Positions 24,425-27,168 of a stretch of DNA of 32,000 nucleotides are shown here, in pieces; positions within the stretch are counted from its first letter, which is position 1; each line of letters opens with the position of its first letter. The translations under genes and the position numbers were made by a program. The DNA lies in NCBI RefSeq assembly GCF_000621645.1, contig NZ_JHXR01000016.1:30001-62000 (forward strand), written 5' to 3'. The notes beneath the pieces are model-generated. The model did not search any database and had not been told where the DNA came from. It saw only the letters and a list, made by a program, of their open reading frames with translations. This DNA comes from Vibrio cholerae ATCC 14035. GTDB taxonomy: Bacteria > Pseudomonadota > Gammaproteobacteria > Enterobacterales > Vibrionaceae.

Positions 24425-25765
24425 TTGTCTTCTTCTCTCGCCAATCGAAATATCTACACCGTTTCCCGTTTAAATTCTGAAGTTCGTTTATTACTGGAAA
24501 ATGAAATGGGGATCGTCTGGTTGGTGGGTGAAATTTCCAACTTCTCCGCTCCCGTCTCTGGTCACTGGTATCTCACTTTAAAAGACAGCCAAGCGCAGGT
24601 TAAATGCGCTATGTTCAAAGGCAATAACCGTCTGGTGAATTTCAAACCGCAAAATGGTCAGCAAGTATTAGTTAAAGCTCGACTTTCTCTTTACGAACCG
24701 CGCGGTGACTACCAAATTATTCTTGAAAGCATGCAACCGGAAGGGGATGGCCGTCTGCAGCAGCAGTTTGAACAACTGAAGATGCAGCTCGCCGCCGAAG
24801 GTTTGTTTGCTCAGACACGTAAAAAACCATTGCCGGAAAATCCACGCTGCGTGGGGATTATCACCTCACGGACTGGCGCGGCTTTGCACGATATTTTGCA
24901 CGTGCTTAAGCGCCGTGACCCGAATCTGCCTGTAGTGATCTACCCCACTCTCGTACAAGGTGAAGAGGCAGCTATTCAAATCGCCCAAGCGATTGGTCGT
25001 GCGAATACACGCGCCGAGTGCGATGTGTTGATAGTAGGTCGTGGTGGTGGCTCTTTGGAAGATTTGTGGTGTTTTAACCATGAAATCGTGGCACGTACTA
25101 TCGCTGCGAGTGAAATCCCAATTATCAGTGCTGTAGGCCATGAAATCGATGTGACGATCGCTGACTTTGTCGCCGATGTGCGTGCCCCTACCCCATCAGC
25201 AGCGGCGGAATTGGTCAGCCGTGATCATCGCCATAAACAGCAAGCACTCCATCAATGGCAAGCCAAACTGGCTAGCACCATGCGCCATTATTTGGCGCAG
25301 CAAGAGACGCAATTTGCCCGTTTACAGCACAAGCTTGATAAACAGCATCCTCAAGCTCGTTTAGAGCGCCAGCAGCAGCAACTTGATGAGCTCAGCCTGC
25401 GTCTTGAGCAAAAGATGCAGCAACGTCTGGCAACTCAGCAGCAACGCTGGGATCGCTTAAGCCATAAGATCGAGCTCCATTCGCCCATTCACTTGATCCG
25501 CCAGCAGCGTTTTAATCTGATCCAGCAAGAGCAGCGAATAAATCAGTCGATCCAACGCTATTTGATCCAATCACGCCATCAACTCGCTTTGTTGAGTGAA
25601 AAGTTGGATGCGGTCAGCCCTCTTGCAGCCTTAGCCCGTGGCTATTCGGTGACACGTACCACACAAGGTGAGTTAGTGCGCCAAAGCGCGCAAGTGAAAC
25701 CGGGTGACACTTTAGTCACCCAGTTAATGGATGGTGAGATTCTCTCTACTGTGAATTCCCGTTAA
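24425..25765 (+). CDS. xseA: Exodeoxyribonuclease VII large subunit
   Basis: The protein matches E. coli XseA from [20 protein letters not shown] onward. The track ORF starts at a TTG (24371) inside the promoter region. The TTG at 24425 is preceded by GAGGA (24413-24417) at 7-nt spacing, and no in-frame ATG occurs before the conserved region. This gives 446 aa. Confidence 0.9.
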
Positions 25766-25979
25766 GCGGTTGGAAGACAAAACGGATTTTGGATTTCGAT
25801 TTCAGCTCATTACACTGATTACAGAAATAATTCGCCGCACCACAAGCCTGTAGCTTTTCTAATTCACTGCCACACTCAGGGCAAAATCCGACTTTACGGT
25901 AATCTACCGTACAAGCGCTGCAGTGGTACTGACCTGTCCATTCTAATTCTTGGCCACATGTTGGACATGGGTTGTCCAT
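25746..25979 (-). CDS. yfgJ: Small zinc-ribbon protein, YfgJ (DUF1407) family
   Basis: 77 aa with four CxxC pairs (CPTCG, CSAC, CPECG, CNQC), like E. coli YfgJ. An AAGGAGAG Shine-Dalgarno lies upstream. The syntenic position next to xseA and der is conserved. The 3' end overlaps xseA by 20 nt. Confidence 0.85.
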
Positions 25980-26283
25980 AGCACTCTCCTTATCATTTTG
26001 CGTTGTATCACATAATTCATCGAGATGGGATCCGACGCCATGATCTTTATCACGCCTACTCAGATCGATGCGACTTAATTAACCAATAACTGATACTCTT
26101 TTAAGCAGGATCCTAACCGGATCTTCTGCTCAAAAGGTTTTGATCAGCGATCTGCCATGAAAAGAACTTTTATATAACCACCCACCGAAAGCATAAGTTA
26201 CATATTCTGCATTTCAATTTTAAAAAGAATAAAAATCTAAAAACAAAACCATTTAAGACTTAAGACAGAATATAGTAAAAAGA
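25980..26283. other. crtS: Non-coding GATC-dense, AT-rich interval; candidate crtS (chromosome-2 replication-triggering, RctB-binding site)
   Basis: The interval is 304 bp with no credible ORF. GATC sites start at 26029, 26042, 26063, 26109, 26120, 26142 and 26149, which is 7 in 124 bp. They include two GGATCC sites and one TGATCA. A-tract-rich DNA follows at 26160-26283. The position between the alaX-like gene and yfgJ, just beyond der, matches my recollection of where crtS was mapped on V. cholerae Chr1. Confidence 0.6.
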
Positions 26284-27168
26284 TCACTCAGATTCTGAGG
26301 GCTGCGCGCAAGTGACTGCCTCAATATGCTGTTCATCGACTTGTTTCAGTGTCACTTGGATCGACTGAAAGGCGGTTAAACCCTTGCAGTGTGTGCCTCC
26401 ACAAGGAATTCGTGCGATATTGGCTTCATGTAAGTCACATTCCCAATAACGTGAATCGGTCAAGGTTGAGCCCGTGCACTCAAGACGAATTGGGCTGGCT
26501 AAAGCTAGCCACTGCGCAAGCTGTTCATTAGTCTTTTGTTCTATAAAACTTAAATCTCTCAGCACATCATCACTATTTAAACCTCGCTTACGCAGTGTTT
26601 TCCCCAAACGATAGACATCGGTTGAACAATCAGGAGTAACATCACTTGAGATTTGGGCATAGCTGTTGAAGTCAAAATAACCCTGCGGGTCTTTACGCTC
26701 TGCATCTTTACGCCAATACCCCTGTGCTAAGACTTTATTGAGCGCTAAATAACCTAAATGCCCTGCGCTATGACCTCGGCTTAAACTTGCTTGATATTGG
26801 GTATCGACTTGCAACTGAACCTTATCGCCCACTTGGCATGCGGCTATGACTTCGCCAAGACGATGAACGACCACAAAGAGCCAGCCGCTCTCTTCACGTT
26901 TTACGGGGATATTATTTCCAACGTACAAATGACCCGAGGCTTGTTCAATCGCCCCCACGACACAGTCAGTGACGGCATACTCACTACCTTGCCAAATTAA
27001 GATTCCACGGTCAGCAGGATGATCGGGCCAAATATGACTGACAGGGTGAAAAGGCGTACTGTAGGTGACAATATCCATTCCATTTTGATGAGTCTGAAGC
27101 AACATCACTTGAGTCTCTAGTGATGTAATTCCTTGTGGAAAGGTGACTTCTGTTGCGCAATAGGTCAT
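26284..27168 (-). CDS. Stand-alone alanyl/threonyl-tRNA synthetase editing-domain (AlaX-like, COG2872-type) metal-dependent hydrolase
   Basis: The editing-domain zinc motifs HxxxH (GHSAGHLGYLAL) and CxxxH (PCGGTHCKG) are present. The N-terminal segment TPFHPVSHIWPDHPADRG is AlaX-like. The track start at 27201 is a TTG inside the der terminator. The ATG at 27168 has a GAAGGAGAG Shine-Dalgarno. 294 aa. Confidence 0.8.
   Translation of the reverse strand: MTYCATEVTFPQGITSLETQVMLLQTHQNGMDIVTYSTPFHPVSHIWPDHPADRGILIWQGSEYAVTDCVVGAIEQASGHLYVGNNIPVKREESGWLFVVVHRLGEVIAACQVGDKVQLQVDTQYQASLSRGHSAGHLGYLALNKVLAQGYWRKDAERKDPQGYFDFNSYAQISSDVTPDCSTDVYRLGKTLRKRGLNSDDVLRDLSFIEQKTNEQLAQWLALASPIRLECTGSTLTDSRYWECDLHEANIARIPCGGTHCKGLTAFQSIQVTLKQVDEQHIEAVTCAQPSESE

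Follow-up and report, generated by a model that had tools for sequence, protein, structure and literature searches.

Introduction

The crtS site of Vibrio cholerae is the textbook case in which one bacterial chromosome determines when another one replicates. In strain N16961, it is located on Chr1 at 817947-818099, between the VC0764 and VC0765 genes (PMC6212839, PMC6139311, PMC11711613). The RctB protein binds crtS as a monomer, and this binding is aided by DnaK/J and Lrp (PMC6212839, PMC6139311). A relocated crtS works normally and shifts the timing of Chr2, while deletion of crtS leads to the loss of Chr2 (PMC6212839). Moreover, each duplication of crtS activates one ori2, probably by disrupting an RctB bridge across the inhibitory 29/39-mers (PMC11711613).

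Methylated and unmethylated crtS are bound equally by RctB (PMC6212839), and RctB binding at crtS persists in a dam deletion strain (PMC11711613). An earlier note on the DNA studied here had likewise described this binding as methylation-independent. In addition, GATC point mutants retained normal ori1/ori2 ratios, and a 62-bp crtS free of GATC was sufficient for the Chr2 copy number (PMC6212839). Licensing of Chr2 by two unreplicated copies of crtS is also possible, with hemimethylation and SeqA playing no part. De Lemos Martins et al. noted that motifs beyond the minimal site, although very conserved, were without detectable function (PMC6212839).

According to the published mechanism, Lrp positioned on crtS would assist the binding of the Chr2 initiator RctB. 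The Chr1 replication fork would then duplicate crtS, and each new copy together with RctB would destabilise the RctB bridge at the 29/39-mers of ori2. As the next step, the iterons would become exposed and ori2 would fire once. Neither Dam methylation nor any GATC site would be needed for this triggering.

A similar logic is found in the DARS and datA elements of E. coli, which modulate an initiator at a distance from the origin. Like crtS, they are non-coding, they remodel or titrate an initiator with the help of nucleoid proteins, and their effect depends on position and dosage. The helper proteins at DARS and datA are IHF and Fis, in place of Lrp at crtS. However, the initiator there is DnaA rather than RctB, crtS couples two chromosomes, and the sequences are unrelated.

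Here, we analysed a 32-kb stretch of V. cholerae DNA (the window), in which the earlier note had pointed to a GATC-dense gap at 25980-26283 as a probable crtS.

Identity of the gap

The gap at 25980-26283 almost certainly contained crtS, the Chr1 site that triggers Chr2 replication in V. cholerae. The gene order in the window was bamB-der-[294-aa gene]-gap-yfgJ-xseA-guaB-guaA, which fitted the published location between VC0764 and VC0765. Over 6.2 kb, the window was 98.1-98.7% identical to nine of ten other assemblies that had the same yfgJ protein. Kemter et al. cloned crtS of V. cholerae (N16961 coordinates 817945-818139) with primers 1439/1440. These primers matched the window at 26290..26096 with 44 of 45 bases and the published product size of 195 bp. 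The sole mismatch (T against C) was at 26277, inside the variable 5' arm of crtS. Since 8 of 10 related assemblies likewise differed from the window at this position, the mismatch was consistent with strain variation.

The coordinates of the published element were transferred to the window by a simple map, where the window coordinate equals 844235 minus the N16961 coordinate and crtS position p corresponds to window position 26289-p. The anchors of this map were the primers, the 19-nt quoted RctB-protected sequence and the motif positions. The following features of crtS and its two neighbouring genes were placed in this way or by direct motif and domain matches.

26136 to 26288, minus strand: crtS, 153 bp, N16961 Chr1 817947-818099 (anchored map)
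26197 to 26215, minus strand: RctB DNase I-protected bases GAAATGCAGAATATGTAAC (exact single match; PMC3937223)
26185 to 26209, minus strand: Vibrionaceae signature CAGnATATGTAACTnATGCTTTCGG (0 mismatches; PMC5854411)
26166 to 26235, minus strand: 70-bp minimal enhancer chrI-9, N16961 818000-818069, crtS 54-123, active in E. coli (PMC3937223, PMC6139311 and the map)
about 26185 to 26246, minus strand: 62-bp minimal functional crtS in V. cholerae, probable placement (text of PMC6212839 and the map)
26225 to 26239, minus strand: putative Lrp site TAGATTTTTATTCTT, crtS 50-64 (12/15 to YAGHAWATTWTDCTR)
26190 to 26217, minus strand: sigma-70-like promoter directed toward yfgJ, with -35 TTGAAA at 26212-26217, a 16-nt spacer and -10 TATGCT at 26190-26195
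26169 to 26177, minus strand: degenerate DnaA-box-like sequence TTATATAAA with 3 mismatches to TTATCCACA (motif match; PMC6212839)
26166 to 26184, minus strand: conserved but dispensable stretch with the degenerate DnaA box
26236 to 26288, minus strand: A/T-rich 5' arm, poorly conserved, required in V. cholerae (PMC6139311)
25746 to 25979, minus strand: yfgJ-like double zinc-ribbon gene, 77 aa, the VC0765 equivalent (PF07191, E = 1.3e-26)
26284 to 27168, minus strand: 294-aa gene at the VC0764 position ('alaX-like')

Several independently published properties of crtS were reproduced at the mapped positions. Baek and Chattoraj reported the RctB-protected bases GAAATGCAGAATATGTAAC at N16961 818020-818037 (PMC3937223). 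This sequence was found once in the window, as an exact match on the minus strand (26197-26215), and its start was exactly where the map predicted it. The signature CAGnATATGTAACTnATGCTTTCGG had been used by Kemter et al. to locate crtS in Vibrionaceae (PMC5854411). With up to 3 mismatches allowed for membership, it had one match in the 32-kb window, at 26185-26209 of the minus strand and with 0 mismatches, and none in 100 shuffles. Ciaccia et al. described an Lrp site with a 12/15 score at crtS 50-64 (PMC6139311); the Lrp SELEX consensus YAGHAWATTWTDCTR also scored 12/15 at the corresponding window positions 26225-26239. The DnaA-like box of crtS was reported to carry three mismatches and to lack DnaA binding (PMC6212839). 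Accordingly, the sole DnaA-box-like site on the mapped 153 bp was TTATATAAA, which differed from TTATCCACA at 3 positions.

With the map fixed by the published primers, the RctB-protected bases and the Lrp site, crtS was assigned to 26136-26288 of the minus strand. The element was the same as crtS of N16961 (817947-818099): the RctB-protected bases, the signature, the position of the Lrp site, the DnaA-like box, the promoter and the flanking genes all matched. Nothing substantive differed apart from the one primer base at 26277 in the variable 5' arm. The earlier note's identification of the gap as crtS, flanked by VC0764 and VC0765 and adjacent to der, was borne out by three independent anchors (the primers, the footprint and the Lrp position) and also by the signature. 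The interval 25980-26283 was wider than crtS, yet it omitted the last 5 bp of the element (26284-26288).

Because crtS and its GATC sites were already described in the literature, the gap was a correct rediscovery of a known and well-studied element. This rediscovery from raw sequence indicated that non-coding control elements missed by gene callers are detectable, and it contained no new biology. What we added were precise positions in the window for every published part, a division of the GATC cluster into four conserved and three lineage-specific sites, and numbers from 113 species for the pattern of a GATC-free core with a phased GATC flank.

Anatomy of crtS in the window

The working core of crtS was its right part, which was free of GATC and A/T-rich. 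It carried the RctB footprint, the Lrp site and both minimal sites, namely the 70-bp enhancer and the 62-bp site. The probable position of the latter was derived from its published description: it begins 11 bp further upstream than the 70-mer and lacks the pseudo-DnaA box and any GATC. The corresponding interval 26185-26246 contained 0 GATC. The earlier note had described the right half of the gap (26160-26283) as rich in A-tracts, and this half was indeed 51% A and 24% G+C. The 5' arm of crtS is needed for Lrp according to the literature (PMC6139311), and deletion of the 3' 30 bp leaves the function of crtS unaltered (PMC6139311).

The earlier note had emphasised the left half of the gap, where GATC sites were dense. 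The cluster itself was real, but the functional core was located in the GATC-free right half. Of the seven GATC sites in question, just two (26142 and 26149) were inside crtS, at its dispensable 3' end, and the other five were outside.

The sigma-70-like promoter at 26190-26217 was the only promoter-like site in 25700-26500. The -35 and -10 elements of PcrtS have been placed within the conserved centre of crtS, and Lrp represses this promoter (PMC6139311, PMC3937223). Most likely, the promoter in the window was this published PcrtS, with the identity of the hexamers inferred. No transcript from PcrtS was observed in published RNA-seq (PMC6139311).

The GATC cluster

The GATC sites of the gap were at 26029, 26042, 26063, 26109, 26120, 26142 and 26149, and an eighth site (26282-26285) straddled its right edge. 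Thus, seven sites in 124 bp were present exactly where the earlier note had listed them. Two GGATCC sequences (26028-26033 and 26108-26113) and the close GATC pair in tgatcagcgatc (26141-26152) were also there as described. The following features contained these sites.

26141 to 26152: conserved 12-mer GATCGCTGATCA, crtS 137-148, with two GATC and TGATCA (identical in 94/113 loci)
26109 to 26123: two position-conserved GATC outside the 153-bp crtS, at 26120-26123 and 26109-26112 (113 loci)
26282 to 26285: upstream flanking GATC at crtS 4-7; it overlaps the alaX-like gene's stop codon
25980 to 26108, minus strand: region upstream of yfgJ without family-wide conservation, with GATC at 26063, 26042 and 26029 and a Shine-Dalgarno sequence AAGGAG

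Val et al. counted two GATC sites in crtS, and the mapped 153 bp had three.

The whole 32-kb window contained 167 GATC sites (5.2/kb). Seven sites per 124-bp span were not seen anywhere else in it, and the runner-up was a cluster of 6 within xseA (25451-25567); the high density suggested by the earlier note was therefore unmatched in the window. The expected number for a 124-bp span was 0.41-0.65, in agreement with the earlier estimate of about 0.5, and the observed number was about 10 times higher. When the left half was shuffled 20,000 times by mononucleotide, the highest count was 5 GATC and 7 was never attained. For one span chosen in advance, the Poisson probability of 7 GATC was 5.5e-6. 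When the scan over the whole window was taken into account by placing 167 sites uniformly, at least 7 were reached in 31 of 5,000 simulations.

We also considered a 22-bp near-palindrome at 26126-26147 and several GATC-centred inverted matches as possible features of the family. They were rejected because outside V. cholerae and V. mimicus none of them was conserved.

Conservation of crtS and its flanks in Vibrionaceae

Species-representative genomes were scanned with TATGTAACTnATGCTTTCGG, which gave 120 loci. Stray matches from outside the family were removed by a similarity filter, and 113 distinct true crtS regions remained. They came from six genera: Vibrio, Aliivibrio, Photobacterium, Salinivibrio, Enterovibrio and Veronia. 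The comparative set was chosen by an exact match to the 19-base core, so that it represented crtS sites with this core and left out diverged ones. All offsets below were counted from the first base of TATGTAACT, which corresponds to window position 26204.

The conserved core that the earlier note had proposed to look for in other Vibrionaceae was found: conserved columns spanned about -38 to +95 in the 113 loci. The region from -45 to +48 was free of GATC in 112 of the 113 species. On its downstream side, GATC was present at +52 in 95%, at +59 in 91%, at +81/82 in 96% and at +92 in 64% of the 113 species, and the species without a site at +92 mostly had one at +89, +91 or +100. At least four GATC were found between +45 and +125 (about 80 bp) in 104/113 species, where 0.38 were expected. 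On the upstream side, 100/113 species had at least one GATC between -110 and -50, mostly at -81/-80 or -61. Expressed as density, GATC reached 73.6/kb at +50 to +99 and 20.7/kb at -100 to -51, fell to 0-0.4/kb in the core and was 4.8/kb overall (a local enrichment of about 15 times over background). The number of GATC per crtS locus was nearly invariant at 4-5.

The position-conserved sites of the window were 26149, 26142, 26120 and 26109, which made up a phased block at 26109-26152, plus the upstream 26282. A 2018 review draws five GATC sites, the same number as the conserved positions counted here. The distal sites 26063, 26042 and 26029 were specific to the V. cholerae clade: they were either private to V. 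cholerae or, as for the GATC at +159 and +172, had counterparts in V. mimicus and V. metoecus alone. The distal zone as a whole (+126 to +260) had 0.79 GATC per species versus 0.64 expected and thus no family-wide enrichment. Since four positions were conserved family-wide and the three distal ones were clade-specific, the '7 in 124 bp' consisted of four GATC of the conserved crtS flank and three lineage-specific GATC in ordinary spacer DNA.

These data bore directly on the possibility that the GATC density was a product of chance or composition and had no function. The distal sites 26029, 26042 and 26063 were unconserved and lay in a zone without family-wide enrichment, and the 6-GATC cluster in xseA demonstrated that local clusters do occur. 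However, the left-half shuffles never reached 7, the local density was 15 times the background, and in six genera, with flanks that varied, position conservation was 88-96% for three of the four GATC and 64% for the remaining one. As an account of the whole cluster, chance was therefore extremely improbable. For the four proximal sites it was refuted by the comparative data, and it stood only for the three distal ones.

Sequence between the conserved GATC sites varied, and the distances did not. The 17-nt spacer that follows the 12-mer GATCGCTGATCA had 96 distinct sequences in the 113 loci but a fixed length, and the +81 GATC was found in 33 different 8-nt contexts. The dominant start-to-start spacings of GATC were 7, 22 and 11 bp. 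In the window, the sites 26142, 26120 and 26109 were separated by start-to-start distances of 22, 11 and 33 bp, corresponding to 2, 1 and 3 helical turns, and the same was true in most species. This suggested that selection in the flank acts on the GATC tetranucleotides and on their helical phase, and not on the intervening DNA.

Gene context of crtS across the family

In all related loci whose stored flanks reached these genes, crtS was located between der and yfgJ and/or xseA. The earlier note had placed the gap inside a lineage-specific insertion. This was correct in part: the alaX-like gene was optional in Vibrionaceae, and the 294-aa gene was absent from about one third of the loci. On the other hand, crtS itself was always between der and yfgJ/xseA. 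In some loci (L018, L024, L091 and L022), yfgJ was 1.2-2.9 kb away, behind GAF-GGDEF or other genes, and in others (e.g., L078 and L112) a yfgJ homolog was undetected downstream of crtS. With few exceptions, the GATC block adjoined crtS both in the presence and in the absence of the alaX-like gene and regardless of whether yfgJ, a GGDEF gene or xseA was the neighbour.

The gene context was informative for another explanation, in which the GATC-rich left half would be the promoter or 5' leader of yfgJ, providing Dam-dependent control of its transcription in a manner unrelated to replication. The region indeed had the crtS promoter, which is directed toward yfgJ, on one side and the start of yfgJ, with a strong Shine-Dalgarno sequence, on the other, and the three distal GATC were lineage-specific, as in ordinary promoter DNA. 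However, a search of 25980-26135 revealed no promoter-like site, and the PcrtS transcript was absent from the published RNA-seq data mentioned above. We considered this explanation very improbable overall. For the four conserved GATC it was rejected because the block accompanied crtS regardless of whether yfgJ was adjacent, 1.2-2.9 kb away or undetected.

Possible functions of the GATC flank

These numbers sharpened a puzzle that the field has noted: five GATC, four downstream and one upstream of the core, kept their position and phase in 113 species from six genera, yet they were dispensable in every published test. Selection on GATC and phase is the pattern expected for SeqA, which favours pairs of GATC that share one face of the helix, or for another reader of Dam sites. 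Most likely, the role of the flank is an accessory one, linked to Dam, SeqA or hemimethylation and missed by laboratory assays.

Known SeqA clusters are found at oriC, ori1 and the dnaA promoter, and crtS likewise had dense Dam sites beside a replication-control element. Similarly to those clusters, the spacing at crtS put several GATC on one helical face, and at least two were within about 3 turns. By contrast, the block at crtS had only 4-5 sites versus a larger array at origins, and mutations of the crtS GATC sites had no effect on Chr2 control (PMC6212839). By analogy, the flank might be a timing module, where the phased hemimethylated GATC would bind SeqA after passage of the fork. SeqA would then sequester or hold the two new crtS copies, tuning the ori2 delay or blocking a second trigger. 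The conservation of GATC and of the 22-, 11- and 33-bp spacing, with intervening DNA free to vary, was in favor of such a module, as was the presence of GATC on both sides of an RctB/Lrp core that was itself GATC-free in 112/113 species. However, the published GATC mutants with wild-type ori1/ori2 ratios, the maintenance of Chr2 by the GATC-free 62-bp site and the licensing of Chr2 by two unreplicated crtS copies, in which neither hemimethylation nor SeqA binding takes part, were all against it. Thus, we regarded the SeqA module as possible but doubtful.

A more specific version, in which the five phased GATC that bracket the core would form a post-replication hemimethylation/SeqA latch setting either the delay or one trigger per duplication, seemed to us unlikely. 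If true, such a latch would have been overlooked since the published tests measured the steady-state copy number of Chr2 or mutated some of the sites only. Kemter's tables contain data on the Chr2 delay for 11 species.

It was also conceivable that the 12-mer GATCGCTGATCA is a methylation-dependent, iteron-like RctB site that would load RctB and lose it when hemimethylated by the fork. The RctB iterons of ori2 are 11/12-mers with TGATCA, and the 12-mer of crtS shared TGATCA and a Dam site with them in a comparison made by this hexamer only. In the Chr2 iterons, full conservation is confined to this hexamer, which is at 26141-26146 in the window (PMC3937223, PMC11711613). Moreover, the whole 12-mer, including the GCT between its two GATC, was identical in 94/113 loci and in this respect resembled a specific protein site more than generic GATC. 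In contrast to the iterons, the 12-mer was a single copy rather than an array and was dispensable: the 3' 30 bp of crtS that hold it can be removed without functional change (PMC6139311). The loss of Dam leaves the binding of RctB to crtS unaltered (PMC11711613), the published footprints fall in the core (PMC6212839, PMC3937223), and there are about 1000 TGATCA hexamers per genome (PMC3937223). This made the iteron-like role of the 12-mer improbable.

Neighbouring genes and coding content

The absence of a credible ORF from the gap, which had been stated in the earlier note, was confirmed: merely five ORFs of 21-36 aa touched the gap and none of them was credible. An Rfam scan of the gap at E <= 1 revealed no known RNA family. 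The 294-aa protein encoded next to the gap had no Pfam match and just a sub-threshold similarity to the AlaRS editing region. In the gene calls of related assemblies, the products at the VC0764 position were 291, 294 or 302 aa long. The exact yfgJ protein of the window was present in thousands of assemblies. Finally, a terminator-like hairpin was observed at 26287-26299, by the 3' end of the 294-aa gene.

Sequence variation and GATC content of crtS

Among the ten V. cholerae assemblies carrying the same yfgJ protein, base differences inside the gap between yfgJ and the neighboring 294-aa gene (25980-26283) were concentrated in the A/T-rich 5' arm of crtS, at 26236-26277, and there were none from 26136 to 26235, a stretch containing the core and the conserved 12-mer (26141-26152). 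At position 26277 the window had T and the published primer had C; eight of the ten assemblies also differed from the window at this base.

The mapped 153-bp crtS (26136-26288, minus strand) contained three GATC sites, at crtS positions 4, 137 and 144, compared with the two given by Val et al. 2016. Perhaps this small mismatch reflected a slightly different definition of the fragment. The TGATCA hexamer of the 12-mer fell within the following element:

26126-26147: 22-bp near-palindrome, CTGCTCAAAA cc TTTTGATCAG, 9 of 10 positions paired

In the comparison of 113 Vibrionaceae crtS loci, this near-palindrome was retained in V. mimicus and absent from other genera.

GATC sites across the window

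GATC was commoner than expected across the whole window (167 observed against 108.5 +/- 10 in dinucleotide-preserving shuffles), a level that was reached by no shuffle. A second cluster, with six sites in 117 bp (25451-25567), was located within the coding sequence of xseA, toward its 3' end and at a distance of about 0.5 kb from crtS. Judged by sequence comparison, this cluster looked lineage-specific because the matching zone in 112 related loci was only mildly enriched in GATC (about 7/kb vs 4.8/kb).

Genes on either side of crtS

The xseA gene, on the plus strand, and yfgJ, on the minus strand, were convergent, and their 3' ends shared 20 bp (25746-25765). In at least 15 species, e.g., V. 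harveyi, V. atlanticus and V. brasiliensis, yfgJ was more than 1.2 kb away from crtS. The individual loci of the 113-locus set with this arrangement included:

L091, L024, L018, L025, L066, L070 and others: yfgJ remote from crtS, intervening region at about +190 to +1210 relative to the crtS core

In the loci examined, a gene for a GAF-GGDEF diguanylate cyclase of about 334 aa was located between crtS and the remote yfgJ, in the same orientation as the crtS promoter. At the Photobacterium obscurum locus (L022), it was replaced by two large ORFs, one with a start resembling that of a LacI-type regulator and the other of 478 aa.

The gap was bounded on its other side by the gene that the earlier note had described as alaX-like:

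26284-27168, minus strand: 'alaX-like' gene, 294 aa

A Pfam search with its product returned no matches, and the similarity to the AlaRS editing region (TIGR00344) was sub-threshold (E = 2e-8, 33 bits; cut-off 457). The gene was absent at about one third of Vibrionaceae crtS loci, and it was called as 291, 294 or 302 aa depending on the V. cholerae assembly.
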